From a virus (lineage: Duplodnaviria > Heunggongvirae > Uroviricota > Caudoviricetes), in IMG/VR virus record IMGVR_UViG_3300027734_000034: a DNA stretch of 64,000 nucleotides; one strand, given 5' to 3'. Position numbers and translations under genes: made by a program. The notes under the pieces were generated by a model that was given only the letters and a program-made list of their open reading frames with translations, did no database searches and was not told the DNA's origin. Positions 45,770 through 63,587 of this stretch are shown one piece after another (within the stretch, counting starts at the first letter, position 1; the number at the start of each line of letters is the position of its first letter).

Positions 45770-46612
45770 TTAAGTGCCCCATTCGTTTTTGAATAACGGC
45801 ACTTGTAGTCTATCACTGTACCGCCATCCTTTTCGCATTGCCATTTCTGCAACCGCCCTATTATTAAGATTGTACACCCGCTCAACGCCACCACAAGGCA
45901 TAAGATAGACATGACCACGAAAACCCCTCTTACGATACGCATTTACTGCCTCCTCAGCTTCTTCCATATCCTCGTTAGTAGCTACTACAAATTTGAGATA
46001 TGTATGCCCAACTTGGCTATATTCATAGATTATGTCTGGGCAGATAGCATCATCCCACTTCTCACCACTGATGCTGAGTTTAGGACTGACGCTGAATGTG
46101 ATAGAACCCATGCTACGACTTGTACACCATTTATTCAAGAAGAATCGTAGATCCTGATGTAATGATTGTGTACCATTAGTCTCAAAAGTTAGTTCTTGTA
46201 AGCTACGCATCTTCTCGTTTGAAAGTAAATCAACAAAACTACGCTGCCAACCTAGTAGTGGCTCACCACCAGTGATGACAAGATGCTCATCTAACCAACG
46301 CTTCTCTGGCAACATATCCATGATACTACTAACAATACTATCAGTTTCAAGCATTGGACTTAAGTCTTTGAATCTGGGATCCCAACTCGCATAGCTATCA
46401 CATCCTGTACTGACAAGTGGTAACATTTTGTAATCAGTATACTTTGTCGGGTCGATATTATTTGCTTCCTCGCTTAGTTTACCTTTCGGCATACCAAAGC
46501 CTGCACATTTGAAGTTACATCCGAATGTTCGTAGAAATACTGAGGGGACACCCATGTATCTACCTTCACCTTGAATGCTATAGAATAGTTCTGCTATTTT
46601 TAATTTTGCCAT
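45770..46612 (-). CDS. queE: 7-carboxy-7-deazaguanine synthase (QueE-like radical SAM)
   Basis: N-terminus AELFYSIQGEGRYMGVPSVFLRTFGCNFKC matches QueE E.FxSxQGEG...G.P.xFxRxxGC; Cys cluster spacing atypical (CxxxC...C). Confidence 0.6.
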   Translation of the reverse strand: MAKLKIAELFYSIQGEGRYMGVPSVFLRTFGCNFKCAGFGMPKGKLSEEANNIDPTKYTDYKMLPLVSTGCDSYASWDPRFKDLSPMLETDSIVSSIMDMLPEKRWLDEHLVITGGEPLLGWQRSFVDLLSNEKMRSLQELTFETNGTQSLHQDLRFFLNKWCTSRSMGSITFSVSPKLSISGEKWDDAICPDIIYEYSQVGHTYLKFVVATNEDMEEAEEAVNAYRKRGFRGHVYLMPCGGVERVYNLNNRAVAEMAMRKGWRYSDRLQVPLFKNEWGT

Positions 46613-46615
46613 GTT

Positions 46616-47713
46616 TTATTGCCTGAATGAATTTATGTCACCTAAATATACTTTTTTGTTTTTAAAAATATCATCTTTTAATATTTCTTTTAGTAAAATT
46701 TTATCTTCTGCGTTTAAATTTAATCTATCGTACATAATGTTATCTAAATGTCCCCACTGCCGTATACTATTAAAATATATACCTGTCAAGTTTTCATATG
46801 ATAATTGCCAATTAATATAGTCTTTAATTTCTTTATAATTACCTTTTTGGACAGTAAAAGAAGTACTCCAGCCAATAAAATTTTTAAAACTGTTACTTAT
46901 AATCATTTCATTAAGAAATTTTAAATTTTCATCTAATTTATCTTTAGATCCATTTATTCTTATCTTTGAATAAGTTTCATTTGAAAATGCATCGATACTT
47001 ACTGTAATATGTGTGATATTATTCCATAATGGTTTTATTTGATTCCAGCGTGATTCTGTCATTAAAATACCGTTGGTCATTAGTTTTATTGTTAAATTTT
47101 CATTTAGATTTTTTGTTGACAATGTTTTTAAGTAATTCCAATAAGTAGGACTTGCAAAAGCATCTCCACTACCAGTAATGTTTATACTAACCTTTTCACC
47201 TTGTTCTAATAAATAATCAACAAGTTTTTCAACTTTGTCATTGATATTATCTATTTGTTTATTTTCTCCCAATTTATGAAGTATTAAATTATTACGACAA
47301 CTAGGACATTGCAAATTACATGATAAATCATAACAAAAATGAATTATGATTGAATTAGAATTTTTATAAAAATCTAATAATTGCAAAGGTACAATTGTAT
47401 TACCAGGCATTACTTTATCATTTAACATTTGACTAATAAAAGGACAATAGTCATTGCAGTTTGTGAATTTACCCTCACTCATATCTGATATCATAGCTAG
47501 TCGTTCTGAATTATTAATGATATCTTCTATTGAATCTGTAATAATATTGCCGCAAAATTTTGGTAACCAAGAAAAACAACATATAGTAATATCACCATTG
47601 TGGTGAATTTCTAAATGTTTTGATATTTTATAACAGCCGAAATTTTTTAAATATTCCTGTGTTCTTGCATACTCATTTTCTGATTTCATTAAAAAATTCA
47701 TGTTATGATTCAA
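46616..47713 (-). CDS. radical SAM domain protein of unknown function
   Basis: CNLQCPSC (CxxxCxxC) motif about 130 aa from N-terminus; additional Cys pairs near N-terminus; 365 aa. Confidence 0.55.
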   Translation of the reverse strand: MNHNMNFLMKSENEYARTQEYLKNFGCYKISKHLEIHHNGDITICCFSWLPKFCGNIITDSIEDIINNSERLAMISDMSEGKFTNCNDYCPFISQMLNDKVMPGNTIVPLQLLDFYKNSNSIIIHFCYDLSCNLQCPSCRNNLILHKLGENKQIDNINDKVEKLVDYLLEQGEKVSINITGSGDAFASPTYWNYLKTLSTKNLNENLTIKLMTNGILMTESRWNQIKPLWNNITHITVSIDAFSNETYSKIRINGSKDKLDENLKFLNEMIISNSFKNFIGWSTSFTVQKGNYKEIKDYINWQLSYENLTGIYFNSIRQWGHLDNIMYDRLNLNAEDKILLKEILKDDIFKNKKVYLGDINSFRQ

Positions 47714-48192
47714 TCTTTAAATTCATTATCTTCTCTGTGTCCTTGACGACCTGCCATGTTTGAATCAGTCTCACGTACTTCTACTTTACAGCACCAAACA
47801 CGTTTGGCTTCTTCACTGCCGCAGTTGGGTAAGAAGATAGTGTTCACATATTCATATAAGAAATCACTGATACCTTCACATCCTGTCTTTTCAACCTCTG
47901 TAATTTTTGCTAGTTTAAGTTTACCTAGATTCAATAGATGTTCACGCATCGGGTCATCTTGTGCGACTAGTAATGTATGATCGAACCATTCTTCTAATTT
48001 TTCTTTGAGTGGTTTCAAGCCACCAAAGTCAGTCACCCAGTTTCGTGCATCTAATGTATCCGCTTCAAATTCAAAATGAAACGACATTGCGTAACCATGA
48101 ATCATGTTACAATGACTATCTGCACGCCATTGACGATAAGCTACTGGACCTATCTGTTTGTACGTTTTTGTACTGAAATATTTTTTTGCCAT
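47710..48192 (-). CDS. queD: QueD/PTPS-family protein (6-carboxytetrahydropterin synthase-like), divergent metal site
   Basis: SHCNMIHGYAMSFHFEFE vs QueD HKCGRLHGHSFMVRLEI; WFDHTLLV vs LDHHYLN; third His replaced by Tyr. Confidence 0.5.
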   Translation of the reverse strand: MAKKYFSTKTYKQIGPVAYRQWRADSHCNMIHGYAMSFHFEFEADTLDARNWVTDFGGLKPLKEKLEEWFDHTLLVAQDDPMREHLLNLGKLKLAKITEVEKTGCEGISDFLYEYVNTIFLPNCGSEEAKRVWCCKVEVRETDSNMAGRQGHREDNEFKD

Positions 48193-48266
48193 GTTGTTCT
48201 CCTATGTTAATTATAGCATAGGCAGCAGAATTTGTAAAGCGGGATGATGACCGAAGACCGCTATCT

Positions 48267-48728: not shown

Positions 48729-48997
48729 TCTTCAACTCCAAAAAAGTGTTCTTTAATTGCTACATAACTGTCAACACCACATTGAACATAACCATCCCAA
48801 TGTGTGTCCTTCATCATAAGTTCATCTTCCAGCACAGGCAGATATTGTTCTCTTACTTGATTCATACATTCAGCTATAATCAATTCAGCAAGATTTTCTA
48901 AGTTTTGTTTGTCATCATCATGCCCGTATAAGCTAGACCGTTTTAATGCCCAATCAAATCCAGCCTGTTCAGCAAGTTGTTGAATTCGTTCGTTCAT
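48725..48997 (-). CDS. MNERI/HFGVE small-protein family member
   Basis: MNERIQQLAEQAG, NLENLAELIIAEC, C-terminus KEHFFGVEE. Confidence 0.5.
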   Translation of the reverse strand: MNERIQQLAEQAGFDWALKRSSLYGHDDDKQNLENLAELIIAECMNQVREQYLPVLEDELMMKDTHWDGYVQCGVDSYVAIKEHFFGVEE

Positions 48998-49677
48998 TTC
49001 CCACCCCGAGCCAATTGATAGAATTCTGCTCTTGCTGCTGGATCACTTTTGAATCCACCACCTAATTTACTTGTAACAGTACTAGAGCCAGTATCTTCTA
49101 CACCTCTTGATTTAACACAATAATGTTGTGCATCAATCATGACCGCAACATCTTCTGTCTCAAGGATATATTGCAATGCGTGAAAGATTTGTTCTGTCAA
49201 TCGTTCTTGTATTTGTGGACGCTTGCTAAAGTATTCTACGATACGATTGATTTTACTCAATCCAAGTACTTTCTGATTGGGAACGTATGCCACAGTTGCT
49301 AGTCCATCGATGACTACAAAGTGATGTTCGCAATTGCTTTGTACATTGATATTGCGTTCGCATACCATTTCGTTGTACTTCATCTTGTTATCAACTGCTG
49401 TACATTTAGGAAATGCCTCATAATCTAATCCCCAAAAGATTTCATTGACATACATCTTTGCTACACGTTTTGGGGTGTCAATCAGACTATCATCTGTTAA
49501 GTCAAGACCTAATGCTGTCATAATATCAGCAAATAATACTTCAATGACTTCAATCTTGCCTTTACGGTCGATGATTTGACCTGTCTCTTTGATAGGAGTT
49601 TCAACTCCCATCTTAACCAAATGTTCGTGTACTTTTTGACCCAACTCTGGATCTGTTTTTGTTTTATTATAACTCAT
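48994..49677 (-). CDS. folE: GTP cyclohydrolase I
   Basis: CEHH motif (NCEHHFVV), C-terminal QHYCVKSRGVEDTGSSTVTS region typical of FolE; strong RBS AAGGAAGG. Confidence 0.8.
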   Translation of the reverse strand: MSYNKTKTDPELGQKVHEHLVKMGVETPIKETGQIIDRKGKIEVIEVLFADIMTALGLDLTDDSLIDTPKRVAKMYVNEIFWGLDYEAFPKCTAVDNKMKYNEMVCERNINVQSNCEHHFVVIDGLATVAYVPNQKVLGLSKINRIVEYFSKRPQIQERLTEQIFHALQYILETEDVAVMIDAQHYCVKSRGVEDTGSSTVTSKLGGGFKSDPAARAEFYQLARGGK

Positions 49678-49713
49678 AGATAACCTTCCTTTGTGATGGT
49701 TTTTGTTTTGAAA

Positions 49714-49739
49714 TGTAAGCTACCGTTGTGTAGCTTACA
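49714..49739 (-). other. 10-bp perfect hairpin TGTAAGCTAC-N6-GTAGCTTACA in folE 5' region, downstream of GATAAATAA box (49743-49751)
   Basis: Seen in sequence; followed on minus RNA by UUUCAAAAC; either terminator of upstream small gene or 5'-UTR structure. Confidence 0.4.
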
Positions 49740-49756
49740 TATTTATTTATCACAGA

Positions 49757-49945
49757 TTAAGCCTTAGCTTCTTTTCTTGCTGCTTTTTCAGCGGTGATTT
49801 CATTACGGCGAGCCTTGACTGCTTTAGCTAGTTCACCCAATGCTTTACGGGCACGAGTTCCTGCTGCTGCATTACCTTTTTCAAATTTTTCATGTTCGGC
49901 TTCGTATGCTGCCAATTGTGTTTTAATATCATTATGTGCGTTCAT
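49757..49945 (-). CDS. small Ala/Lys-rich helical protein (62 aa)
   Basis: ORF only. Confidence 0.35.
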   Translation of the reverse strand: MNAHNDIKTQLAAYEAEHEKFEKGNAAAGTRARKALGELAKAVKARRNEITAEKAARKEAKA

Positions 49946-49970
49946 TTTATTTCCTTTTTAAAATTTTTTT

Positions 49971-50354
49971 TTATTCGTCAAGTCTGGTGATTTCTAAATC
50001 ACAATCAATAATCATTTCGCATTCGTCTTGACTCCAGCCGTGTTCTTCTAAGTCAAGCCAAGAATTACCTTCTTCAAAGAATTCTTCTATCCAAGCTGTA
50101 GTTTCTTCATCACAGTCATCTGTGTCAACTTCTTCCCAGCAACCATCGCTAGTTTCAACTAGTTCAGCTTCATATCCGCAGTCGTACATATCTACTCCTG
50201 CTTCAATATCAGGGGGATTATCATCTTCTGTTTCTACAGTAAATTCTCCCCAACGCCATCCTGTTTCAACCATGACCTTATTACCATCTTTAGTAAGATA
50301 GTTACGTTCAATGATTGATTTCTTCCATGTTGGTTTTACACTCCATATTGCCAT
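49971..50354 (-). CDS. highly acidic small protein (127 aa)
   Basis: Asp/Glu-rich: EVDTDDCDEETTAWIEEFFEEGNSWLDLEEHGW. Confidence 0.45.
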   Translation of the reverse strand: MAIWSVKPTWKKSIIERNYLTKDGNKVMVETGWRWGEFTVETEDDNPPDIEAGVDMYDCGYEAELVETSDGCWEEVDTDDCDEETTAWIEEFFEEGNSWLDLEEHGWSQDECEMIIDCDLEITRLDE

Positions 50355-50355
50355 T

Positions 50356-51555: not shown

Positions 51556-51737
51556 TGATCTCTCGCAACTTTTCCAGTTGCGAATTTTGTATACTGACGA
51601 TAGACATAACTACGTTGGTCGTAGAGTTCTGCTTCGTTGTACTTATAACCAAAATCCACGCAGAATTCTAGATATTTCTCTAGGTCCTCAAAGATTTGTT
51701 GAACACGTGGGTTTGATTGAAAAGTTTGTTTTGCCAT
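51531..51737 (-). CDS. hypothetical protein (68 aa)
   Basis: ORF only. Confidence 0.35.
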   Translation of the reverse strand: MAKQTFQSNPRVQQIFEDLEKYLEFCVDFGYKYNEAELYDQRSYVYRQYTKFATGKVARDQWQENARP

Positions 51738-51746
51738 TTTATTTCC

Positions 51747-52199
51747 TTAGATAGCGAGGTTAGTTAAAGGTTTAGTTACATTATAAAAAATCGTAGCACC
51801 ATTCTCATTGTCCTCTGAGACAGTGATAGTGATATTACGATCTGGATACCGAGTTGCAATAACCTCATAAAGATCATCACTAATCATTTCACAACTTTTG
51901 TAATACAATGCAAGAATGCCTTGAGAATATTGATTCTCTAACCATCGTTTGAATTGAATAAACTCAATATCACGGTCGTTGTGAAATACTTCAATCGTCA
52001 CCTCAAAGTGAAAGATGTGACGATGTGGAGTTGCTAAAAAGCTAACATCATACTCATCACCTGTTGCCAAGTTAGGGTCTGTTGCTGCTGCGGGGTATTT
52101 ATGAATACCTTCTTTTTGAAAACGTACAAAAATTGTACGCATTGCTTTATCTTTAATTCGTTGACGTTTTTCAGCCAATACTTGCGTTTGTTGTTCCAT
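51747..52199 (-). CDS. hypothetical protein (150 aa)
   Basis: ORF only. Confidence 0.4.
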   Translation of the reverse strand: MEQQTQVLAEKRQRIKDKAMRTIFVRFQKEGIHKYPAAATDPNLATGDEYDVSFLATPHRHIFHFEVTIEVFHNDRDIEFIQFKRWLENQYSQGILALYYKSCEMISDDLYEVIATRYPDRNITITVSEDNENGATIFYNVTKPLTNLAI

Positions 52200-52408
52200 T
52201 ATCTATCATCCTCAAAATTAACTCGTTCATGGTCTTCATCCCATTGAAGTCTTGTATATCTTCTTAACTCTAAGTATACATCAAGCCTATCTATTTTCAT
52301 ATCTTTAAGGGCATCTACAGTAAAGTCTTTATCCTGTTCTGCTGCTAGTATTTTAGCATCAAGGTCCTTGAGTTGTTGTTCTAATCTTGCAATTCGTTGT
52401 CTATACAT
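52199..52408 (-). CDS. small coiled-coil protein (69 aa)
   Basis: ORF only. Confidence 0.35.
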   Translation of the reverse strand: MYRQRIARLEQQLKDLDAKILAAEQDKDFTVDALKDMKIDRLDVYLELRRYTRLQWDEDHERVNFEDDR

Positions 52409-52412
52409 ATTA

Positions 52413-54008
52413 TTACTCCAAAACTAATGACATAGCGTCATCGCTATCTTCTATTTCCTCAATTGGTTCTTCATCTACAGTAAACAATTCATTAAACATA
52501 GTCATAGCATTAACTGTTTTTTTACCACTAATACCTTGGCTACCTGATTGGAATTGTTTCCAATAACTACTATGATAGTCAATCAACTCCCATGCTTCAT
52601 CTTTAGTTTTCTTTGAAAAGATTTCATCAACTAATGTAGTGAAGAATCTATCACCTTCAAACTTATGAACAATCATCTTAGGAATCACACCTTGTTCATA
52701 TTGCCGATTAGCCTCTTGAACTGCATTCATATGCATCCAAACATTGTGACTTTGAATCAATGTGTAACTCAATGTATCCCAACTTGTTTTAGTTTCTTTG
52801 CCATGTTGTCCTAAGAATCCTACCCCACGATAACACATATCTTTGAGTGTAAGTAAATCAGTTACTGGACTATCCGTAAATGTTTTATGTATTCCTTCAG
52901 CTAACACCGCATCACGAAACTTGCGAGTATCACTAGCATATGATTTCTTCTCGGCAGTCTTTTCCATTTGATAAGACCACTTCTTATTATGTTGAATAGT
53001 TGTATTAAAATATGCCAATCCTTTAGCTGCACTATAAAATGGACTTGCACAGTCAAAAGTAATTTGAAGTTTAGGATTATGATATTTACGAATAGCTTTT
53101 TGAATATCAGTAAACAATACTGCATATTCTAATATACTTGTACCCAAACAATGTACTAAATCATGCTTATCTTCACGCAATAACCCGTCGTGAATTATTT
53201 CAGTCAATCTACGCAATGTCAAATGAATGTCAATTTTATTTTGTCCACCGAACGCCCATCCGTTAAAATGATTATCTGGATAGATATTTGGGTCACAGTA
53301 TTTTTTCATTTCAGTATACCATGTATCGCTGGCTGTATGATTACGACCCTGCAACACATTTAAAAACTTGCATTTCCCTGAGCGATTTTTTATAAAATAT
53401 TCATTATTGATATGAGTAGCTGTTATAGCTTCTTCAACATTTTTGATACCATGCAGACTTTTTCCAGTACCTGGAATAGTGTTACCATCACTATCTTTTT
53501 CTACTGTCTTAGGGTCTTTCATATGAAAAGTAAGTTCAGACTGACTTGGTATATCTAAACACATACCATAGTCCATGTATGTGTCCATCCATGTTAATAC
53601 TGCTTTGCGTTTTTTCATAGCACGAGGACAGTTAGGATCCTTCCAGTCTGCGGGCCATTGACCTTTTAAAATTTGAAAGCCACCACTGTCACCCAACATG
53701 AATGTACCTTGCTCACGCTCACGTATGATACTCTCATTGTTATCGTTCACAGTGGTATCTAAGTTAGCATGACCGGCAGAGTATAGTCCCCACTTGTAAT
53801 AGTAAAGACCTTCTTTGCTGTTTAAGAAGTTTAATTTCTCAACATCGCCCTTGAACCCTGCAGGGATGCGAGCCTGATCAAAGTATGGTTCACCCTTGCG
53901 TTGCTTACCCAAACCAGCAATATAGAAACTGCTGACTGCGGGTAAGAACAATGCCCATTCAGGGTCTTGTTTTAGTGATAGATTATCCTGGACCATATGG
54001 TAAATCAT
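52413..54008 (-). CDS. dpdA: tRNA-guanine transglycosylase superfamily protein (DpdA-like DNA-guanine transglycosylase candidate)
   Basis: FMLGDSGGFQILKG matches TGT catalytic LTDSGGFQVFSL; GWAFGG cf. TGT GYAVGG; located in 7-deazaguanine gene cluster. Confidence 0.5.
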   Translation of the reverse strand: MIYHMVQDNLSLKQDPEWALFLPAVSSFYIAGLGKQRKGEPYFDQARIPAGFKGDVEKLNFLNSKEGLYYYKWGLYSAGHANLDTTVNDNNESIIREREQGTFMLGDSGGFQILKGQWPADWKDPNCPRAMKKRKAVLTWMDTYMDYGMCLDIPSQSELTFHMKDPKTVEKDSDGNTIPGTGKSLHGIKNVEEAITATHINNEYFIKNRSGKCKFLNVLQGRNHTASDTWYTEMKKYCDPNIYPDNHFNGWAFGGQNKIDIHLTLRRLTEIIHDGLLREDKHDLVHCLGTSILEYAVLFTDIQKAIRKYHNPKLQITFDCASPFYSAAKGLAYFNTTIQHNKKWSYQMEKTAEKKSYASDTRKFRDAVLAEGIHKTFTDSPVTDLLTLKDMCYRGVGFLGQHGKETKTSWDTLSYTLIQSHNVWMHMNAVQEANRQYEQGVIPKMIVHKFEGDRFFTTLVDEIFSKKTKDEAWELIDYHSSYWKQFQSGSQGISGKKTVNAMTMFNELFTVDEEPIEEIEDSDDAMSLVLE

Positions 54009-54369: not shown

Positions 54370-55097
54370 TTTTTGTTCGCTGGAAGCAAGTAAACATATG
54401 TTGCGATACCACTATCAACTGTAATCTCAGTCGCACCTTGTTCGCTAATCTTGACTTTCTTGTCACCAACTTGATCCATGATACTCAAGAATTCTTTAAC
54501 GGGCCACTTATGTGTACCAGCTAGTGTACCAGTCACTGGGGTGTTGAACACAAAGTTACCACTGTGAGTTGATGCATCACCAAAGTATATCTTCAAATCA
54601 CTGCCATCAGTTTTGAATACAAAATGTTCTTCTTCGCTATTAGCATTTGCTTGCTTTTTAAGACGTTGAATACCTGCAACTGTCGGCTCAAATTCAACAT
54701 TCCATTTAGCACCTTTGAATGATACACTCTTAACTTTTTCATCGACTACGCTTTTAAGCATAAGACGATAGTCATTAACAAAATCACCGTTCTTTGTTTC
54801 GAAATGAATAGTAGATGGAACATCTACACCATCACGCTGAGTACGAACAACATTGATTTTAGCATCTTTGTCATATTCGTCAAACCCGATAATTGTCTTG
54901 AGTTTACTCAAGTTAGGCATACCAAACACACCGATAAAGTCAGCTAGTGGGTCTTTGAATGTACCACTTACGATAACATTTTTGTTTTCAGCTACTGCAT
55001 TGATAGTAGTCTCTGTATCAGTACCAGTAACTTTAACAAGTTCAATTGTACCAAGACCATGCGTATGGTCAATTAAGTCTTTTAAATAATCTTTCAT
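54366..55097 (-). CDS. hypothetical protein (243 aa) immediately downstream of DNA polymerase
   Basis: ORF only; no convincing match to T4 gp45 clamp. Confidence 0.4.
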   Translation of the reverse strand: MKDYLKDLIDHTHGLGTIELVKVTGTDTETTINAVAENKNVIVSGTFKDPLADFIGVFGMPNLSKLKTIIGFDEYDKDAKINVVRTQRDGVDVPSTIHFETKNGDFVNDYRLMLKSVVDEKVKSVSFKGAKWNVEFEPTVAGIQRLKKQANANSEEEHFVFKTDGSDLKIYFGDASTHSGNFVFNTPVTGTLAGTHKWPVKEFLSIMDQVGDKKVKISEQGATEITVDSGIATYVYLLPANKK

Positions 55098-55175
55098 TTT
55101 GTTTCCTTTGTTTAAAATATTTAGGAGTTCCTATCACGTATTATAGTGGAATATATTGCAATAGTCAACACCAGT

Positions 55176-57881
55176 TTAACCGAATGTGAATAAATCATCA
55201 AATGTTGAATTAACATCGGTGTTGCTTCTGATATCCCAATCTAATACACCAAGCAAGTTGTCTATCTTTTCATCAACCAATGTTGATTCCATTAGTAAAT
55301 CATCAAATGGCAATTCTTTGAACCAACTTGGCAATCTCAATTCATCAACCGGATATGCGATACTAGTGAAACCTAATGCATTATCTTTGAGTTTACATAC
55401 AACAATCTTCATACCATCTATAATCTTCTGGCTGTAGTTATCACCGTATACTCTGCGTAGATAGTTCCAGTTGATTGCTGCCCGTGCATGACCGACACCA
55501 CACTTACCAGTCTTTTCAAACTCAATGGTATGCTTAGTCAAATTGTTAACACTCTTTGGACTACCCTTAGTCCAGCTGTCTTGTTCAGACAATTTGTTTT
55601 TGAATTCTTTGACCATTTCAATAACTTTATCCCTTTGAGCACCGGCAAGTACTTTTGTAAGTACATCCATTAAGAATTCTTGTATGTACTTTGGAGTATC
55701 AGCACGTTTCAAGTCAAGACCCATAGCTTTGATATCACCATTCTTGCCGTTTGTGTCTTTACGCTTGCCTTCTTTATCAAAGATATTAATAGCATAACGC
55801 TTCTTAGTAATAAAGATAGCACGATCACCAATCAATTCACGCCCAGCTTTAATGATTAAACCATTCTTTCTTGGAGCATGAAATGCTCGTTCCATGAATG
55901 CAGGGAATGATTCGTTTGCTTGTTCAGCAATACTATCATATAGTCCGATACAAGTTTCTTTGTTCCACTCTAGTTCCCCGTTCGCTATTTGCGAATTGAG
56001 AATAGGATATGCAGTAAAGTAACATGAGTCAGTATCACCATACACAATAGCATTACCATCGTGTGCATATTCACCTGCAATTGTTTCGTTGATTGTACTC
56101 ATCATATGTTTAACAATCTGACGACCACTTAATGTAACTGATTGCCCGATACGCTTATCATAGAATCTGCAATGTTCATTCAATAGTGCGCCATACGCAG
56201 AGTTCAACAAAATCTTACGAACAAGTTGACGTTTATCATAATATTCATATTGGTCAGTGCCATAAGCTGCTTTTGCTTTAGCTTGCATTTCTTTACGTTC
56301 ACTATACCAGCGAGACAATAGTCCTGGGACTACGCCCTCTTTCTCATAAGTAAAGATTGTACCATTCGCAGATAGCATCCATGGGCGATTGCTATCAAAT
56401 ATAATCTTCCATATTTCAGCAGCACTATATTCTTCACTGCGACCATCTTCATAATCTAATGTAAGCATTACTCCACGGTCTTGATTCATAATAGCTGTAT
56501 ACTCTAATACACTAAACAAGTTTTCCCATAGAATAGCACCAGTAACATCATCGTCACCTTCTTTGAATCGTTTCTTAAGGCTAGCAAGTTGCTTGCCCTT
56601 ATCGTCCATATACTTGTCAGTTAATGTCTGACGGACTTGACCAACGATGGTTTCTCCTGCCATGTTGAGGGCACGAATAACCGAGGGATAGAGCGAGTTA
56701 ATGTCAACTGCTCCGACATATTCGTGCATGCCTTTTTTGGGCGTAGCAACGAAGGCACCTGCTGCTGGCGTTGTTTCTTCTGCATTTTCATTCTTTCGTT
56801 TTTTGTCTGGCACTACTAAACCGCGTTCATGCGCTTCATTGAAAATTGCCATTTCAATCATAGCTACAGAACCCATTACTGTTGGCAGTAATACTGTATT
56901 CTCATGTGCTAGCTGATTAGCTAGTTCTAAGAATTGAAGTTTGTTGTGAATCTTCACTAACAACATGGTATCTTGACGATTATATTCAATAAACTTTTTA
57001 AAGTCTTTGTTATACAACTGGTCAAGAGTACCTTCATATTGAGTTTTGTTCTCTCCTACTTCCATCTCACCAATAGCATCTAACTTATATGAATGTCGTG
57101 ATTCATAGTTATACTTTTTGTAGAGTTGTAAATAGTCCAAATGAATACGACCTACTAAATCGTATGTAGTTTCACTTTTGCCAAATCTTTCGTATTCTCT
57201 TGCTTTAGGAAGTTGACCCATCAAGCAAAACTTGCGTGTATCATCCTTACTCATTACTCTTGTGACACGATTAACCATATAAGGTATATCATATCCTTCA
57301 CTGTTCCAGCCAGTCATTACATCAGCATCTTCAATGAGTTGAAAGAAAACATCAAACATATCCTTCTCGTTAGTGAAAAGCATACAGTTCTCAAACTCAT
57401 TACATATTTCTTGCGCTGTTTCTGGACTCATGTGCTTAGGAGCAATGACCAATGTAACTAATGTATCTTGCCAATCCAAATATAATGAGATAGCAGTCAC
57501 TGGATTGAATGGGTCAGTCGTAGGACTAAAACCTTTCTCAGGGTCAAAGTCTACCTCAATGTCAAAGAAGCAAGTATGTAGTTTAGGAACATCTGCCTTA
57601 AGATAGTTTTCACTAAGGCAACGAAAAATTACTGGCACATCACTTTCAAATAATTTCTTACCTGAATGTATACGTTTTTCTTTTTCAAACTCTTGTCGTT
57701 TGCGTGTACTGAAACGATTTACAGGGTCACCATATATACTGCGATACTTTCCCTTATGATCGGGATAGTAGAGTACATAGTTTGTGGGATATTCTTTGTA
57801 TTGACGCTTTCCGTTCTGGTCTCGTTCCACCACATAGATACGATCCTCATCCCTTGAGTGTATTGCATCCACATAGGACAT
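55176..57881 (-). CDS. 43: family-B DNA polymerase (T4 gp43-like)
   Basis: ExoI FFDIEVD; ITGWNSEGYDIPYMVNRV (T4 FTGWNIEGFDVPYIMNRV); motif A VDINSLYPS; motif B KILLNSAYGAL; motif C YGDTDS; C-terminus STFDDLFTFG (T4 ASLDFLFG). Confidence 0.9.
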   Translation of the reverse strand: MSYVDAIHSRDEDRIYVVERDQNGKRQYKEYPTNYVLYYPDHKGKYRSIYGDPVNRFSTRKRQEFEKEKRIHSGKKLFESDVPVIFRCLSENYLKADVPKLHTCFFDIEVDFDPEKGFSPTTDPFNPVTAISLYLDWQDTLVTLVIAPKHMSPETAQEICNEFENCMLFTNEKDMFDVFFQLIEDADVMTGWNSEGYDIPYMVNRVTRVMSKDDTRKFCLMGQLPKAREYERFGKSETTYDLVGRIHLDYLQLYKKYNYESRHSYKLDAIGEMEVGENKTQYEGTLDQLYNKDFKKFIEYNRQDTMLLVKIHNKLQFLELANQLAHENTVLLPTVMGSVAMIEMAIFNEAHERGLVVPDKKRKNENAEETTPAAGAFVATPKKGMHEYVGAVDINSLYPSVIRALNMAGETIVGQVRQTLTDKYMDDKGKQLASLKKRFKEGDDDVTGAILWENLFSVLEYTAIMNQDRGVMLTLDYEDGRSEEYSAAEIWKIIFDSNRPWMLSANGTIFTYEKEGVVPGLLSRWYSERKEMQAKAKAAYGTDQYEYYDKRQLVRKILLNSAYGALLNEHCRFYDKRIGQSVTLSGRQIVKHMMSTINETIAGEYAHDGNAIVYGDTDSCYFTAYPILNSQIANGELEWNKETCIGLYDSIAEQANESFPAFMERAFHAPRKNGLIIKAGRELIGDRAIFITKKRYAINIFDKEGKRKDTNGKNGDIKAMGLDLKRADTPKYIQEFLMDVLTKVLAGAQRDKVIEMVKEFKNKLSEQDSWTKGSPKSVNNLTKHTIEFEKTGKCGVGHARAAINWNYLRRVYGDNYSQKIIDGMKIVVCKLKDNALGFTSIAYPVDELRLPSWFKELPFDDLLMESTLVDEKIDNLLGVLDWDIRSNTDVNSTFDDLFTFG

Positions 57882-58192
57882 TACAGTGTTTTACCCACAG
57901 TTTCCAAGATAGTATTTAATTCCTCGTGGTCGGCATTTGTTTGACCAAGACTTGCTTTGTGTGCGACAGATATTGCCTTCTTAAGAATGCTAGGCTTTAC
58001 TTCTAGTTCTTCTGCAATAGCCTTGACAGTATCACTTAGACCCTCGCGTAGGGTATCGATCTCGTGTAATACTACCATGCCCTCGTTGATAAGTTGAGTC
58101 AACTTAATCTTTTGCTCTCCGGTAAACATTTTATCACTCATAGTTTCTCCTTGTAAAGTAATTAGTATACATGCCTTGTGTAGAAAAGTCAA
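57881..58192 (-). CDS. hypothetical protein (103 aa), stop overlaps polymerase ATG (TAATG)
   Basis: ORF; translational coupling. Confidence 0.4.
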   Translation of the reverse strand: MTFLHKACILITLQGETMSDKMFTGEQKIKLTQLINEGMVVLHEIDTLREGLSDTVKAIAEELEVKPSILKKAISVAHKASLGQTNADHEELNTILETVGKTL

Positions 58193-58797
58193 ACATTTTG
58201 CTGTTTTTCTACAATCTTTTTAACCACAGTATTCAGTCCTGGGTTAATATGTAATGCGTGTGGCATTAAATGTGTTCTTACATAGTTACGCATATACTTC
58301 GTGTCATCATTGCTATTATCGTGACACCAATCAATTGATTTCTGTTCGCACCATTTTGTGAATTCGATTTTGTTTGTAGTTAGAAATGGGCGAACAACAT
58401 TGTTTCTTTTTGCTGGGATAACTTTGGCTTGTCCATGCATTGCTGACCAAAGATATGTTTCTACGCAATCATCTAAGTGATGACCAGTTATCACTGGACC
58501 CAATGAATTGCCAATACTATCCAAAAAATCATAGCGTTCATTACGCCAATGTTCTTCCATGCTAAGTTCTTTGGGTTTACTCTTTTTAATCATCCCAATC
58601 ATCAATGGAAGTTTTCGTTCTGTGCAGAAATTAGCAACAAATTGTAAGGCTCGTTCGCTATTCTCTGTTCCATGATGGAAGAAAGCGCAACCTACCTTAT
58701 GCTTGTGTGAAAGGAAATCAGTGATGGCAACAGAGTCAACACCGCCACTAAGTGCGACAACAACTTCTTTTGGTAATGGAAAGAGTAGTTTTAGCAT
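58189..58797 (-). CDS. PP-loop ATP pyrophosphatase, TilS N-terminal-domain-like (not a canonical QueC)
   Basis: PP-loop VVALSGGVDSVAI; TilS-type motifs VITGHHLDDCVETYL (AHHxDDQxET) and RNYVRTHLMP (RNRIRHELLP); lacks QueC Zn-ribbon Cys cluster and TilS C-terminal domains. Confidence 0.5.
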   Translation of the reverse strand: MLKLLFPLPKEVVVALSGGVDSVAITDFLSHKHKVGCAFFHHGTENSERALQFVANFCTERKLPLMIGMIKKSKPKELSMEEHWRNERYDFLDSIGNSLGPVITGHHLDDCVETYLWSAMHGQAKVIPAKRNNVVRPFLTTNKIEFTKWCEQKSIDWCHDNSNDDTKYMRNYVRTHLMPHALHINPGLNTVVKKIVEKQQNV

Positions 58798-58823
58798 CTA
58801 CGCATTATAGCATAGAAACGATT

Positions 58824-59408
58824 TTATTGAAAGATTTCTGGGTGACTTTTGCCAAATATTTTCATGGCTTTGCCCGCAGTCATATCTGCTAGCATTTCAA
58901 TTGGGCTACCAGGATAACTATCGCCCGGTTCGATCATATTCAATTCACCTTGACGTACATGGGTTAGTTCGTGATAAACGGTACGCATAATGTCAACCAT
59001 GTTACGATTAGCAACATATACCCAAACACTGTTATCGTTTTCTGAATGACGACCGGTGTGATGTCCTTGTTGTGCTTCTTCGGTATTGTAACTGAATTCA
59101 AATTTAGGTGTAGATTGTAGATGTAATTCTTTACTAGCCCACTGGATGAATTTTTGCATTATTGGATTGTCTTCCAAGAAGTTTGGTTCATCGCTTGCTT
59201 CATCTAATTTACCCTTGACCCATTCATCTGGTGATCTTTTGAATTTGTGAACGAACAAATCATGTAATGCTTTACCAGTGATACGATGTTTACTTGCAAT
59301 ATTTTGCATCAACTTGTCAATAGTATTATAGTCATATTTTTGCAATGACGGTAGTCTTTTTGATAATTCAATTGCAGCGGATTCAACAATGATGTGTTTT
59401 GTGAGCAT
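58824..59408 (-). CDS. hypothetical protein with C-terminal HExxH motif. The track start at 59432 is GTG; ATG is at 59408.
   Basis: VYHELTHVRQG; GATAAATAC box ends 3 nt upstream of ATG. Confidence 0.4.
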   Translation of the reverse strand: MLTKHIIVESAAIELSKRLPSLQKYDYNTIDKLMQNIASKHRITGKALHDLFVHKFKRSPDEWVKGKLDEASDEPNFLEDNPIMQKFIQWASKELHLQSTPKFEFSYNTEEAQQGHHTGRHSENDNSVWVYVANRNMVDIMRTVYHELTHVRQGELNMIEPGDSYPGSPIEMLADMTAGKAMKIFGKSHPEIFQ

Positions 59409-59411
59409 TAT

Positions 59412-59420
59412 GTATTTATC
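59412..59420 (-). promoter_or_regulatory. GATAAATAC motif 3 nt upstream of ATG at 59408
   Basis: Minus strand GATAAATACATAATG. Confidence 0.3.
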
Positions 59421-59504
59421 AATGGTGCTCACTTTAACGAACTAAATGGGTAGCGATTCCTATTCGTTGGCCAGCAGCCGGCCACACGGCCCTAAGGTGT
59501 GTTC

Positions 59505-60188
59505 TTACCAAGAATTTTCTTTTAATTCTAAGGTGTATGTATCAAATCTTTTCAATCTAGCTAAAAACTCATTAGTTTGTTCAGTAACAATTCCAGTCAT
59601 TTGAAATGTAACTCGTGGAACATGTCCTGCATTTGCAGTAGAGTGCGGAACATTCTTCCAATCAAATGTACTGACATCGCCGGCTTTCCATCCAGTGTGA
59701 TTATAATTACCATAACTCCAAAAATGTCCCATCTGCCAATCTGTTAATTGAACAACGATTCTAGTAACTAAGTATGGTTGTTCTGGATTCCATTTTTCAA
59801 GTTTGTCTAAATGCAAGTTCCAAACTTCACCCGGCATCTGCACATGTACACGATTCATGCAATCTTTCAATCCAAACAAATCACTAATCTTTTGCAGATT
59901 GGGAGATATCTTCCATGATAGATGACTGATTATATAATCTTTACCATACCCGGTTTGTTCTAAATCATAATCTTCTGCTGCTAGTTCTTCTTCAGGTCTA
60001 GATTTACCTGCTTGTCCTCGTGTACGCCATGTTGCAGGTTTGCTATTACTAACTGCGTTTTCAACATCACTAGAGTAGTCAGCAATAATTCTTCCTAACT
60101 TAACAACTGTGTCATAGTTTGGGTCCATTTTAGTTGTATCAAAGTGATACTTACTTCTTATTTTTGTATTTTCCCAATTTGAATTCAT
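59505..60188 (-). CDS. hypothetical protein (227 aa)
   Basis: ORF only. Confidence 0.4.
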   Translation of the reverse strand: MNSNWENTKIRSKYHFDTTKMDPNYDTVVKLGRIIADYSSDVENAVSNSKPATWRTRGQAGKSRPEEELAAEDYDLEQTGYGKDYIISHLSWKISPNLQKISDLFGLKDCMNRVHVQMPGEVWNLHLDKLEKWNPEQPYLVTRIVVQLTDWQMGHFWSYGNYNHTGWKAGDVSTFDWKNVPHSTANAGHVPRVTFQMTGIVTEQTNEFLARLKRFDTYTLELKENSW

Positions 60189-60817
60189 ATTACAGTTACC
60201 CTTACATCTGATTCCCCATAATTTTGTTGATATTCAACTGGGGGTTGTTCTATATTTAACATATCACAGAGCATGGTATTATTTAATGGGGTTTTGCCTG
60301 GGTAGTTTAAGGTGCCGTTGACAATACCGATGTTCTGTGCTTCAATAATTTTAGACATTGCACGTAGATTTTTATAATGTTGATAGTTTGGATATGTAAT
60401 ATCAAAATGTCCGCATTTTACCCACCACCCTAAACAAGCGTCATCGGGTCTGTGTACCAATATCAGTGGACATTCTGGCCAGGTCTTTTTTATAAACTCA
60501 ATATGTTGAGTATAGCTGAACCAATGACTTTTGATTATACGAATGCCTTCACCATTAAATGGGCGGTCAAATTCTAATTCGTGTCCTTGTTTGCTGCGTG
60601 TGCCAAGACCATCTCCATCTAAAAACCAATCGCCGAATTCCATGCCCGGATCAAAGTATGCACCCATATGCATGAGTTCTGTGCGACCAGTCGCATCATG
60701 AAAATAGGTGCGCTCAATACTGTGGTCACTGCGATCAATACTGGGACTGTGATAGATGTTCTTCGCTACACTGCTCCATTTACTGCCTGGGGCGCCGGCT
60801 ACAAATATATATTTCAT
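60185..60817 (-). CDS. hypothetical protein (210 aa)
   Basis: ORF only. Confidence 0.4.
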   Translation of the reverse strand: MKYIFVAGAPGSKWSSVAKNIYHSPSIDRSDHSIERTYFHDATGRTELMHMGAYFDPGMEFGDWFLDGDGLGTRSKQGHELEFDRPFNGEGIRIIKSHWFSYTQHIEFIKKTWPECPLILVHRPDDACLGWWVKCGHFDITYPNYQHYKNLRAMSKIIEAQNIGIVNGTLNYPGKTPLNNTMLCDMLNIEQPPVEYQQNYGESDVRVTVI

Positions 60818-61770
60818 TCAGGTTTAAATCGTTGTGCTATTGGTTGCCATTCTTTGCGTAACTTAATCATGCTAGCATTTAGTCCTTGTGCTGTGTGTTC
60901 ATTCGTACTTATGAACATCATGTTCTCCTCAAACTTTTCTTTAGCTTCTTTGCTATTGATAGCAGGGATGAAATTTGTACGATACCAGTCTTGTATATCT
61001 TTTGATGTACCTTTGGGTAGTATAAGATTCCAGCAGCCATATAGATTTAACCCCGGCGCGTAGTCTTTCATTAATGGCACTTTTTCTAATCCATGAATAG
61101 GTACTTCACTTGCTAGACCAATTAACTTTAACTTACCTGCTTGTACATAAGGATAACCAACTGCAACTGGTGTCACACTAAACTCAACATGCCCGCCCAT
61201 AACATCTAATAATGCTTGCGCTGGCCCTTTGTACATAATAGTTTCAACCTTATCACCTGCTACATTCAACTTACTAGTTAGATATTCTACTGCTAGTTTA
61301 TGTCCGCCTCCACCAATAGCAAAATTGATAGGTCTTTGTTTAGATTTAATTTCATTTATCAATTCTTCTGGGGTGTTTACTTTACTACTAGGGTGTGCCC
61401 AGAATGCTAATGGGCTTTTAGCAATATTAGCGATTGGTTCAAATTCAAAAATGTTATATTTAAGCATTTGCGGATACCATATTTCAGCAGTCACCCATTG
61501 ACTATTACATGCTGGCATAGAGATGGTATATCCATCATTAGCTACAGTGTTGAAATAATTTGTAGCAAGATTGCCATCTGCGCCTGGTTTATATTCAGAT
61601 ATAAATTTTGTACCAGTGTTCTTTTCTACAATGTCTGCTACGATTTTAAAACTTATCTCATTGCCAGCACCCGGACCGTTTGGATATATAACAGTAATTG
61701 GTTTAGTTGGTTGCCAAGCTATAGCAGACAATGACACAAGTAAAGTTAGAATAAAGATTATTGATTTCAT
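60814..61770 (-). CDS. TctC/Bug-family periplasmic solute-binding protein. Likely start is MKSIIF at 61770; the track ORF extends to 61800.
   Basis: Signal peptide MKSIIFILTLLVSLSAIA; KPITVIYPNGPGAGNE and YKGPAQALLDVMGGHVEFSV...AGKLKLIGLAS match TctC family conserved blocks. Confidence 0.55.
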   Translation of the reverse strand: MKSIIFILTLLVSLSAIAWQPTKPITVIYPNGPGAGNEISFKIVADIVEKNTGTKFISEYKPGADGNLATNYFNTVANDGYTISMPACNSQWVTAEIWYPQMLKYNIFEFEPIANIAKSPLAFWAHPSSKVNTPEELINEIKSKQRPINFAIGGGGHKLAVEYLTSKLNVAGDKVETIMYKGPAQALLDVMGGHVEFSVTPVAVGYPYVQAGKLKLIGLASEVPIHGLEKVPLMKDYAPGLNLYGCWNLILPKGTSKDIQDWYRTNFIPAINSKEAKEKFEENMMFISTNEHTAQGLNASMIKLRKEWQPIAQRFKPE

Positions 61771-61802
61771 AAGAGTGATTAAATATATATTTAACAGCAT
61801 TT

Positions 61803-62336
61803 ATGACAGTCAATCAAATTTTATTAAACCAATACTTTGGTACCATTTGGCATCAAAATAGCGATCCTTCCAAGAAGGATACTAAATCAGGGAAACAATT
61901 AATAGACAAAATTAATCCCGGTGAATCAGTACTAGATGTAGGGTGTGGAACTAATCCTTTTAAAGGAATCATTCCCAATCTAACTGGAATTGATCCGGCT
62001 TTTGACCAAGCAGATCACAAGATATCAATTGATGATTTTGAAACTAGTGAGAAATATGATGTTGCACTATGTCTGGGTAGTATAAATTTTGGAGGTAGTA
62101 GTGACATTGAGAGACAAATTGCCAAAGTCATTTCATTAATGAAACCAAATGGGAGAATATATTGGCGTTGCAATCCAGGAAGACAAGATCACCCTAGTGA
62201 TGAATGCAAAAATGTGCCTTTTTATGCATGGTCTATACAAGAGCATGAGAGACTAACTGCTATGTTTGAAGCACGACTGATTGAATGTTGTTGGGAAGAT
62301 AATGGTCGTAGAATATACGCTGAATGGAATCTTTAA
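61803..62336 (+). CDS. class I SAM-dependent methyltransferase
   Basis: Motif I SVLDVGCGTNPF. Confidence 0.5.
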   Translation: MTVNQILLNQYFGTIWHQNSDPSKKDTKSGKQLIDKINPGESVLDVGCGTNPFKGIIPNLTGIDPAFDQADHKISIDDFETSEKYDVALCLGSINFGGSSDIERQIAKVISLMKPNGRIYWRCNPGRQDHPSDECKNVPFYAWSIQEHERLTAMFEARLIECCWEDNGRRIYAEWNL

Positions 62337-63145
62337 TCGTCACTCTTACCACACTTAGCACGTTTAGCTTGTGTGAGTTTGCCGAAGTCAACTGGCCATT
62401 CTTGGCCTGGTTGTAATTCTTTAGCCCCTTGAGGGAATCCAAACTTTACACCTGAGGCTTGTTCAATCTGTGTTATAGGTAAACGAAACTTAGTTAAATC
62501 ATTTCCTAAATTAGGATATGGAACAACATGTGGGAAACTCCATCCTGCTACTTCTTTAGTTTGATTGTTAATTACTATTTTATAGAAGCCATGTGGAACG
62601 ATTACTCCATTGCCAATCTTCTTATCAGAAGTGGAATATAATGCTCCAACATATACGGTATATGATTGGTTCCGTTGAACTGACCATCCACGGACAGATG
62701 TTTCCAGTAATTTCCAGATTCCACGATTTAATGAGCCAGCCTGGGGCGCCATGTTTGTCATTAAAAAACTCTCAAATTCTACTTGCGTATCCCAAGACAA
62801 ATCTCCATCAGGAGCCATATGTCCTTTATCGTAATTAGTTCCAATATAATCATCAGGTCTAGCACCATTAGAAATATACTGATTAGCGGCAAAAGCATTA
62901 GTACGAGCCACACAACCCAGTGCATTTTGCGGAAGTAGTTCATAAGTTACAAACCTTGGTAGTTTTGCAGATGCATCATAACCAACTAGATATGCTTGTT
63001 GGCATAGTGGCTGAACACCTTGTGTTTGAGGGAATCCGTATGGTGCATGTACTTGGCATTGTTGAACTGAATTTGGGGGACGTTGTGTCCAAGCAGATAC
63101 GGTGAATGAAGCAGTGACTAATAATAGTGATATTATTTTTTTCAT
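62333..63145 (-). CDS. secreted DNA/RNA non-specific endonuclease (Serratia nuclease / EndoG family)
   Basis: Signal peptide MKKIISLLLVTASFTVSA; active-site motif DKGHMAP (family DRGH). Confidence 0.55.
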   Translation of the reverse strand: MKKIISLLLVTASFTVSAWTQRPPNSVQQCQVHAPYGFPQTQGVQPLCQQAYLVGYDASAKLPRFVTYELLPQNALGCVARTNAFAANQYISNGARPDDYIGTNYDKGHMAPDGDLSWDTQVEFESFLMTNMAPQAGSLNRGIWKLLETSVRGWSVQRNQSYTVYVGALYSTSDKKIGNGVIVPHGFYKIVINNQTKEVAGWSFPHVVPYPNLGNDLTKFRLPITQIEQASGVKFGFPQGAKELQPGQEWPVDFGKLTQAKRAKCGKSDD

Positions 63146-63146
63146 A

Positions 63147-63587
63147 TTACGCTCGGGCTTTCTTTAGAGTACTACGAATCATCCATTGATGTTTTTCGTG
63201 AGCATCTAGCCTCTCAGCGATAAAGTTTGCTATACCTTGTTTGTTTTCTTGTGTAGCTGAAGCAAAGCAATGGTTGAGTAAATCAATCATCTTACTGTTA
63301 TCTTCGAATAATTCAGCAAACATTAATTCAGCACGAGGAATTTTAAGTTGGTCTTGAATGATAGATAATTCAGCGTAGCGTGTTAAACTGCCGGGTGCAT
63401 AACTATCCAATGTACGAATGTATTCAGCAACTTTATCTACTGCACTATATACTTCTTCATAGAAATTACCAAAGAATTCGTGATATTCAGGGAAGTCAGG
63501 TCCTTCAACATTCCAATGAAAGTTCTGTGCTTTGATGGATAGTGAATTAACGCTAGCCAATAATACTTTTAAATCTTCTGCTAACAT
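63147..63587 (-). CDS. dps: Dps-family (ferritin-like) protein
   Basis: QNFHWNVEGPDFPEYHEFFGNFYEEV matches Dps HNFHWNVKGPNFxxLHExFEE.Y; IAERL downstream. Confidence 0.65.
   Translation of the reverse strand: MLAEDLKVLLASVNSLSIKAQNFHWNVEGPDFPEYHEFFGNFYEEVYSAVDKVAEYIRTLDSYAPGSLTRYAELSIIQDQLKIPRAELMFAELFEDNSKMIDLLNHCFASATQENKQGIANFIAERLDAHEKHQWMIRSTLKKARA

Follow-up and report, generated by a model that had tools for sequence, protein, structure and literature searches.

The locus considered here lies in a 64,000-nucleotide stretch of phage DNA (Caudoviricetes; IMG/VR record IMGVR_UViG_3300027734_000034), called the window below, in which an open reading frame (ORF) at positions 58189–58797 encodes a 202 aa PP-loop ATP pyrophosphatase resembling the lysidine synthetase TilS. 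TilS re-tunes one isoleucine tRNA for the AUA codon. A first-pass annotation had noted that the neighboring island of 7-deazaguanine genes has no QueC, and had proposed that the short TilS-like protein might supply the missing step from 7-carboxy-7-deazaguanine (CDG) to preQ0, or might amidate or ligate a different substrate on tRNA or DNA. The question raised by the locus is what an enzyme of this size and kind does in a phage. The answer favored here is that it is probably a core-only lysidine synthetase acting on tRNA-Ile2, in this lineage the tRNA of the host. What the locus exposes appears to be a widespread minimal TilS, with no deazaguanine gap filled, and a family-wide pairing with CAU tRNA genes makes the function directly testable.

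A TilS Catalytic Core Without Appended Domains

TilS enzymes have been divided into Type I, with an N-terminal domain and two C-terminal domains (CTD1 and CTD2), and Type II, with the N-terminal domain and CTD1 (PMC11947777). The window protein has the same N-terminal PP-loop domain as both types, including the SGGxDS, HHxDDxxET, R-P, D-x-S-N, and R-N-x-x-R elements, but ends where that domain does, without CTD1 and CTD2. Among the solved structures the Aquifex aeolicus enzyme (1WY5, 2E21, 2E89) is of Type II, and E. coli MesJ (1NI5) and the G. kaustophilus enzyme (3A2K) are of Type I. CTD1 contacts the anticodon stem and elbow of the tRNA, while CTD2 reads the acceptor stem.

The motifs and coordinates given in the first-pass annotation were borne out (Table 1). 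The SGGVDS motif, whose role in TilS is to bind ATP and Mg2+, is the single occurrence of [SG]GGxDS in all six frames of the window. Its HHLDDCVET motif has the counterparts HHLNDLLET, HHGDDQVET, and QHLDDQCET in the TilS enzymes of A. aeolicus, G. kaustophilus, and E. coli, and RNYVR is matched by RNRIR, RNRFR, and RNFLR in the three solved enzymes. D160, N163, and R170-N-x-x-R174 form the conserved D-x-S-N...R-N-x-x-R element, and further TilS residues are matched at H42, R85/R88/Y89 (RxxRY), and R136-P137.

Profile searches give the same family. Pfam PF01171 matches with an E value of 2.5e-35, and TIGR02432, the NCBIfam model of the TilS N-terminal domain, scores 129 bits against a cut-off of 93.6 over model positions 2–189 of 189, a sequence match far beyond chance. 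The full-length TilS equivalog NF007942 failed, with 73 bits against a cut-off of 606 and only positions 18–202 of 439 covered. In a sequence search of the PDB, the only matches below E 1e-10 were the TilS structures 1wy5, 3a2k, and 1ni5, with no QueC among the weaker ones. Alignments to the TilS structures end with the N-terminal domain (A. aeolicus residues 21–227 of 317); the last phage residue falls near residue 232 of the A. aeolicus enzyme, to which the protein is 29% identical. Because the alignments stop at this point, both CTD1 and CTD2 are absent, as had been proposed.

The predicted fold is also that of TilS. An AlphaFold2 model built with 57 homologs has a pLDDT of 94.7, and its best Foldseek match is A. 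aeolicus TilS (2e21; query-normalized TM score 0.86, root-mean-square deviation 2.6 Å), with TilS matches overall at 0.84–0.86; normalized to the target, the TM score against the longer A. aeolicus enzyme is only 0.57. TilS is followed by the tRNA thiolase TtuA, LarE, and GMP synthase, and the top 50 also include MnmA and NAD synthetase. A thiolase role of the TtcA/TtuA kind was considered and ruled out, since CxxC Fe-S motifs are missing from the protein and its matches to TilS have much better scores.

QueC belongs to the same PP-loop ATP pyrophosphatase superfamily, with an SGGxDS motif and ATP-dependent adenylation chemistry, but the likeness goes little further. No QueC family (Pfam QueC or TIGR00364) was matched at E ≤ 1 in the Pfam or NCBIfam searches, no QueC structure is among the top 50 PDB fold matches, and the QueC-like phrog_1550 matches weakly and in the PP-loop region only (residues 10–72, E 3e-7). 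There is no zinc-binding cysteine cluster or CxxC in the protein, just five scattered cysteines (C37, C58, C111, C150, and C158), so that the zinc ribbon is missing as first noted, and TilS-specific motifs are present instead. Of the checks that had been suggested, the profile search with TIGR02432 against TIGR00364 and the structure prediction, in the form of a fold comparison, come out on the side of TilS.

On this evidence the protein is placed in the TilS catalytic-domain family without satisfying the definition of a full-length TilS, and is classed as a new architectural variant of a known enzyme. The TilS literature describes no natural enzyme in which CTD1 and CTD2 are both missing, and literature searches found no characterization of a phage or core-only TilS. 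A 2019 paper described the protein of phages PA5oct (EST35_0433) and MIJ3 (gp263) as the first phage TilS and left its function open (PMC6892783); the papers on these phages mention neither the missing C-terminal domains nor a CAU tRNA link (PMC6892783, PMC7318152).

The Core-Only Family and Its CAU tRNA Neighbors

The short form is common. More than 1000 clusters at 90% identity were found around the window protein and 746 around the PA5oct protein, and there are about 147 clusters at 50% identity (E < 1e-30), nearly all of 195–230 aa. Because so many clusters share it, the length of about 200 aa is not a truncation artifact.

Gene neighborhoods were compared in 78 diverse IMG/VR loci, chosen at 40–56% identity to the PA5oct protein. 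There are tRNA genes within 10 kb in 68 of these, and a CAU-anticodon tRNA in 43. The association tightens close to the gene: where any tRNA lies within 400 bp (33 loci), a CAU tRNA does so in 27. Among these 27 adjacent tRNAs there are 21 different sequences, each on the strand of the gene, and CAU accounts for only about 12% of tRNAs in the sampled loci overall (55 of ~470). In many loci it is the sole tRNA present, about 100 bp from the gene. As typed without isotype-specific models, the adjacent CAU tRNA is always of elongator type, with initiator-like CAU tRNAs 0.9–5 kb away where several occur. In L090 and L149, two loci where the phage also encodes tRNA-Ile(GAU), no other CAU tRNA resembles it as closely as the adjacent one does. 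Genes for the deazaguanine pathway proteins DpdA or DpdL are near in just two of the 78 loci, both from the window's own clade; the other 76 have none within 10 kb.

In the huge metagenomic phages LR745206 and LR756502, tRNA arrays flank the gene, and 32 and 25 tRNAs are found within 20 kb. PA5oct encodes 12 tRNAs 6–10 kb from the TilS gene; three of them have CAU anticodons, and these three are annotated as Met. One of the three is initiator-like. The other two have the anticodon stem of E. coli tRNA-Ile2 (GCGA/UCGC, with a C29-G41 pair) and not that of tRNA-Met, the E. coli reference sequences being exact matches to annotated tRNA-Ile and tRNA-Met genes. From this stem sequence, at least one of the two is probably a mis-annotated tRNA-Ile2, in which case PA5oct gains an AUA decoder missing from its published tRNA list. 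The two genes (MK797984, 267558–267634 and 268039–268115; locus L085, 9559–9635 and 10040–10116) are near-identical except in the acceptor stem. PA5oct has 33% GC in a host with 66%, and its TilS gene is transcribed throughout infection (PMC7318152).

The core-only form is also found in a cellular housekeeping setting. A family member of 208 aa is encoded on a Candidate Phyla Radiation (CPR; Patescibacteria) contig among genes for aminoacyl-tRNA synthetases, MreB, PBP2, GreA, and DNA polymerase III tau/gamma (L646:10001-10627; Candidatus Spechtbacterales metagenome-assembled genome GCA_040879075.1, JBBDKY010000029.1). If the organism has no other TilS, a cell can manage with the catalytic core alone; the find also suggests where the phage family came from. 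Another member, of 253 aa, is on a 428,608 bp contig that seems to come from a giant or huge virus, or else from an unusual genome (L647:10001-10762; GCA_002581825.1, BBPE01000624.1), beside fragments of a peptide-chain-release factor and genes for an N6/N4 methyltransferase, an HNH endonuclease, and a dCMP deaminase.

Conservation and Selection

The core-only gene is under purifying selection, with a median dN/dS (nonsynonymous to synonymous substitution rates) of about 0.11 against 61 relatives. Across 80 close relatives 59 of the 202 residues are invariant, with all catalytic motifs intact, and no frameshifts or premature stops were found; internal stops flagged in four relatives proved to be natural stop codons 1–4 residues earlier at the C-terminus. 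By these measures the gene is clearly functional in a lineage that has no tRNA genes of its own. At less than half the length of a typical TilS it could be taken for a decaying, functionless remnant of a captured bacterial tilS, but that reading is effectively refuted by the selection and invariance just described, together with the retention of the short length in so many clusters.

The PP-loop residues are invariant in two diverse family alignments, as are D110, E113, R170, and R174. Since the window protein keeps the family consensus at every invariant or near-invariant position, nothing suggests a changed substrate pocket. The invariance of ATP-, Mg2+-, and substrate-binding residues under purifying selection also argues for catalysis, and makes it very improbable that the protein has a noncatalytic or regulatory role, whether sequestering host tRNA-Ile2 or tRNA-Met or acting with a protein partner, like the B. 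subtilis TilS-HprT complex that activates ftsH transcription. The missing tRNA-binding domains would favor such a role, and PA5oct and MIJ3 carry an FtsH-like protein as well as the short TilS, the MIJ3 authors citing the TilS-HprT complex (PMC6892783), but the Pfam-scanned part of the window shows no homolog of FtsH or HprT.

The Deazaguanine Island and the Missing QueC

The deazaguanine island was correctly described as lacking QueC, and this now extends to the whole tiled genome. Tiles with 100% overlaps, drawn from the genome of a close relative and the window and with one gap of ~0.8 kb unsampled, total ~264 kb, and the TilS-like protein is the sole PP-loop ORF in them. The island, at 43069–54008, contains FolE, QueD, QueE, a DpdL homolog, and a putative transglycosylase (Table 1), with the TilS-like gene outside it, and is of the QueC-free DpdL type. 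In phage phiST, FolE-QueD-QueE-DpdL-DpdA3 gives complete replacement of dG by 2'-deoxy-7-deazaguanine (dDG) without QueC (PMC10516641). Since DpdL is present, a route of the phiST type without a nitrile- or amide-forming step applies, and the absence of QueC needs no surrogate.

The DpdL assignment is based on 36% identity to phiST gp040 (E 1e-13) and on the motif LATPHRHIF, which fits the LxxxHRHxF signature that replaces CxxxHGH and separates DpdL from QueD (Cui et al., 2023; PMC10516641). Homologs in Phosso, ACP17, and PA5oct are 70, 55, and 52% identical, and the window's QueE is 32% identical to a PA5oct protein annotated as CDG synthase. The assignment of the transglycosylase (gene 78) is putative. 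It has no Pfam or PHROG match, and BLASTP against phiST DpdA3 is nonsignificant (E 0.33); its AlphaFold2 model is a beta/alpha barrel with pLDDT 67, for which the tRNA-guanine transglycosylase (TGT) structure 5lpq ranks second to third (probability 0.95–0.98) with TM scores of only 0.22–0.30. With 6808 metagenomic homologs at E ≤ 0.001, it may represent an undescribed DpdA subfamily.

Like the phiST pathway, then, the window island has FolE, QueD, QueE, and DpdL without QueC and adjoins a DNA polymerase gene. It differs in that its 531 aa transglycosylase candidate is not detectably similar to phiST DpdA3, and in having additional genes: an NAD-dependent epimerase (43069–43893), two glycosyltransferases (43890–45260 and 50356–51555), a radical SAM/SPASM protein (46616–47713), and a cytidylyltransferase-like protein resembling heptose-phosphate adenylyltransferase (48267–48728). 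These could serve further sugar-type hypermodification of DNA bases or an unrelated glycan pathway. The phiST pathway as described does not include a short TilS. Also within the island is a 62 aa protein (49757–49945) with a match to the chlamydial histone H1-like Hc1 (PF07432, E 8.6e-13), which may be a DNA-compacting protein.

It is very unlikely that the TilS-like protein acts as a QueC surrogate, adenylating the CDG carboxylate to form ADG (the amide) or preQ0 (the nitrile). The attraction of the idea lies in the absence of QueC from both the island and the tiled ~143 kb genome, where no other PP-loop protein is found; in the position of the gene, 4–13 kb from the deazaguanine genes; and in PA5oct, which likewise has both a short TilS and a DpdL/QueE island. 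Further, Cui et al. did not succeed in reconstituting DpdL plus DpdA3 in E. coli, and remarked that additional enzymes may be required (PMC10516641). Apart from the DpdL route, the evidence against it is that the protein resembles TilS and not QueC by profile, sequence, and fold, that it retains all family-wide TilS residues with no sign of a pocket shift, that its family neighbors are tRNA(CAU) genes, and that short TilS and DpdL each occur in phages without the other. Of the two findings that together were to refute the surrogate idea, one is in hand: the TilS assignment is strong for the N-terminal domain, but the genome has no QueC gene elsewhere, an absence that DpdL accounts for.

At least ten DpdL-carrying phage lineages, including Phosso, RHph_I1_18, ACP17, and phiST, are without a short TilS homolog. 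Conversely, the huge phages LR745206 and LR756502 (>630 kb) have the short TilS without DpdL or a gene 78-type transglycosylase. Because exceptions occur both ways, neither gene is obligatorily associated with the other. Among cultured phages, only PA5oct and MIJ3 encode a homolog (41% identity, full length, ~203 aa), and in both a DpdL/QueE island lies beside the DNA polymerase gene in the same arrangement as here. They share the core-only architecture with the window and have its PolB, DsbA-like, clamp-like, transglycosylase-like, DpdL, and QueE genes in synteny. They differ in that the PA5oct TilS gene is 51 kb from the island, just downstream of the 12-tRNA cluster, whereas the window phage is tRNA-less and has its TilS gene near PolB. 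A lesson for annotation is that, wherever QueC is missing from a deazaguanine island, DpdL should be looked for first and a surrogate considered only afterward.

Proposed Function in the Window Lineage

The window has about 38% GC and uses AUA heavily, at 18.0 per 1000 codons or 27% of isoleucine codons. By comparison, AUA is used at 0.6 per 1000 codons in B. cenocepacia and 4.9 in E. coli, and the B. cenocepacia TilS is ~1000-fold less efficient than that of E. coli (PMC12514573). With no tRNA genes in the lineage, the substrate would have to be a host tRNA.

By homology with TilS, the PP-loop would bind ATP and Mg2+, and the C2 carbonyl of the wobble cytidine (C34) of the CAU-anticodon tRNA-Ile2 would be adenylated. 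The epsilon-amine of L-lysine would then displace AMP to form lysidine, which changes the identity of the tRNA from Met/AUG to Ile/AUA. An enzyme lacking CTD1 and CTD2 would have to recognize its tRNA by the anticodon stem-loop alone, probably with relaxed specificity. In most other phages of the family, the substrate is probably the phage tRNA(CAU) encoded right beside the gene. In the window lineage we infer that it would be host tRNA-Ile2, the enzyme raising AUA-decoding capacity; in a host rarely using AUA, this added lysidine-forming capacity would relieve a decoding bottleneck.

Several points weigh against this reading. To our knowledge, every characterized TilS has at least CTD1. Residues of CTD1 and CTD2 contribute strongly to catalysis, and deletion of CTD2 cuts activity "dramatically but not completely" (PMC11947777), so a core-only enzyme may be weak, dependent on a partner, or directed at another target. 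Neither ARAGORN nor Rfam found tRNA genes in the window or in ~600 related loci, which together span essentially all of the genome except the ~0.8 kb gap, and the pairing of enzyme and substrate genes seen at other family loci is thus missing from the tiled genome of this lineage. The adjacent CAU tRNAs elsewhere were typed in the limited way already described. The two closest cultured or near-complete lineages, the window clade and PA5oct, carry both a short TilS and a DpdL island, so a link between the two keeps a small probability. Finally, the AUA bottleneck, which depends on the host, is something that we infer.

The main rival, though a somewhat unlikely one, is that the same chemistry is applied elsewhere, the enzyme adenylating a carbonyl on another base and adding lysine or another amine there; such a base might be the host tRNA-Met cytidine, a base in other RNA, or 7-deazaguanine in phage DNA. 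Loss of the specificity domains would relax substrate choice, and a mutant from which CTD2 was deleted accepts a tRNA variant that is otherwise not a substrate (PMC11947777). The window lineage has no tRNA of its own to offer, its gene has moved beside a replication and DNA-modification module, related PP-loop enzymes (GMP synthase) swap a base carbonyl for an amine, and alternative C34 derivatives occur in nature (ava2C; PMC11938285). Against this, the full TilS signature is conserved in tRNA-adjacent members and window clade alike, which argues for the same pocket; no co-varying partner gene was found, the two adjacent candidates being linked to PolB or restricted to the clade; and TilS-type chemistry on DNA is without precedent. 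Of the readings first proposed, a tRNA-modifying ligase is the best-supported. More specifically, it is conceivable but improbable that the core-only enzyme converts host elongator tRNA-Met(CAU) to an AUA-reading, Ile-accepting tRNA, or carries out carbonyl-to-amine chemistry on 7-deazaguanine-modified phage DNA. Either target would be a new use of TilS chemistry, and the former would amount to phage-driven reprogramming of host decoding.

If the lysidine synthetase reading is correct, the implications extend beyond this phage. TilS is essential in almost all bacteria and has been considered an antibiotic target. Mechanistic work, as far as we know, takes it for granted that binding tRNA and rejecting tRNA-Met require one or more domains beyond the core. 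The minimal lysidine synthetase would then be defined by a large and conserved family of ~200 aa core-only proteins, whose genes usually have a CAU tRNA as neighbor. This family would provide a natural system for asking how the anticodon arm alone separates tRNA-Ile2 from tRNA-Met. It also points to a common strategy in which AT-rich phages bring the modification enzyme of the AUA decoder and not only the tRNA; the window lineage appears to bring the enzyme without the tRNA.

Genome Size and Gene Neighbors

No near-identical DNA was found among GenBank phages with window positions 55000–61000 as query, and relatives were collected by protein search. The source samples of the lineage are freshwater lake metagenomes. 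Its genome is ~143 kb, the same genes being found on contigs of 140,919 and 143,665 bp. Two longer IMG/VR contigs, 3300027736_001324 (263,709 bp) and 3300043414_000372 (229,851 bp), which include loci L017, L196, L039, and L181, are apparently concatemeric, with more than one genome length; the spacing of TilS to a marker gene in them fits only a circularly permuted genome of ~143–145 kb. Such contigs overstate genome size and would wrongly class the phage as jumbo. A jumbo genome of >300 kb, assumed from the jumbo relatives of its DNA polymerase, was ruled out by this spacing and by the two shorter contigs.

Table 1. Positions in the window of the TilS-like ORF, its motifs, and associated genes.
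Feature	Coordinates	Strand	Basis
Core-only TilS homolog, 202 aa PP-loop ATP pyrophosphatase	58189..58797	minus	ATG start; ORF translation
PP-loop motif SGGVDS, residues 17-22	58732..58749	minus	aligned to S32-S37 of A. aeolicus TilS
TilS motif HHLDDCVET, residues 106-114	58456..58482	minus	aligned to three solved TilS enzymes
TilS motif RNYVR, residues 170-174	58276..58290	minus	aligned to three solved TilS enzymes
Family B DNA polymerase PolB (T4 gp43-like)	55176..57881	minus	PF00136, PF03104
T4 DsbA-like transcription-regulator homolog (g82), 86 aa	57881..58141	minus	phrog_639 7.9e-8, phrog_12534 1.3e-18, weak PF11126
202 aa protein g84, HExxH-like motif (YHELTHV)	58824..59432	minus	conserved upstream neighbor within clade
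DpdL homolog (QueD paralog, proposed 7-carboxy-7-deazaguanine decarboxylase)	51747..52199	minus	motif LATPHRHIF; phiST similarity
FolE, GTP cyclohydrolase I	48994..49677	minus	PF01227 E 1e-60
QueD, 6-carboxytetrahydropterin synthase	47710..48192	minus	CxxxHG motif CNMIHGY; PF01242 7.6e-16, phrog_2389 2e-41
QueE, 7-carboxy-7-deazaguanine synthase (radical SAM)	45770..46612	minus	phrog_2076 1.2e-50
Putative TGT/DpdA-family DNA transglycosylase (gene 78), 531 aa	52413..54008	minus	GDSGGFQ motif; synteny with DpdL and PolB here and in PA5oct

The placement of the TilS-like gene beside the DNA polymerase gene was close to the mark. PolB is near, but the 86 aa gene g82 stands between them. PolB is 43–49% identical to the polymerases of Phosso, Atu_ph07, Vibrio phage 2.275.O, and Rak2-like jumbo phages, with Sinorhizobium phage Phosso at 49%. 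The g82 homolog in PA5oct adjoins PolB, with TilS 51 kb off, and g82 was ruled out as a stand-in tRNA-binding partner or split C-terminal domain, being DsbA-like and staying with PolB in that phage. On the other side, g84 lies beside TilS in 77 of 83 loci scored, 80 of the 83 being from the clade. No Pfam family matches it, and it was rejected as a TilS partner because it is clade-restricted, with weak matches in only two of 76 other loci. The gene order transglycosylase-g79-g80-PolB-DsbA-like-TilS-g84 is kept within the freshwater clade, which is a single lineage and not independent evidence of a tie between TilS and the deazaguanine genes.

Positions 60814–63587 hold a cluster of host-like genes, encoding a TctC/Bug-family periplasmic solute-binding protein with a signal peptide (60814–61800), a methyltransferase (61803–62336, plus strand), a secreted DNA/RNA non-specific endonuclease (62333–63145), and a Dps/ferritin-like protein (63147–63587). 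The TctC family is expanded in the Burkholderiales, and the gene hints at the host.

Between the replication genes and the island are a UvdE-type UV damage endonuclease (37968–39023; PF03851, E 1.4e-35) and a GP88-domain protein (41327–43072; PF17338). The block 39073–43072 is opposite in strand to nearly all other genes and shows a local reversal of GC skew. A small paralog family (~65–100 aa) with the pattern MNERI-x-QLA...EKFAELIV-x-EC...HFGVEE has at least six tandem copies at 29988–31409 and one in the deazaguanine island at 48725–48997. Outside the window, in close relatives of the phage, the Rfam freshwater-2 RNA motif (RF02980) scores 65 bits against a gathering score of 49.9 at L249:18781-18857 (equivalent to L398:9927-10003 and L485:1404-1480), directly upstream of a 424 aa ORF, which places this orphan motif in a phage genome.

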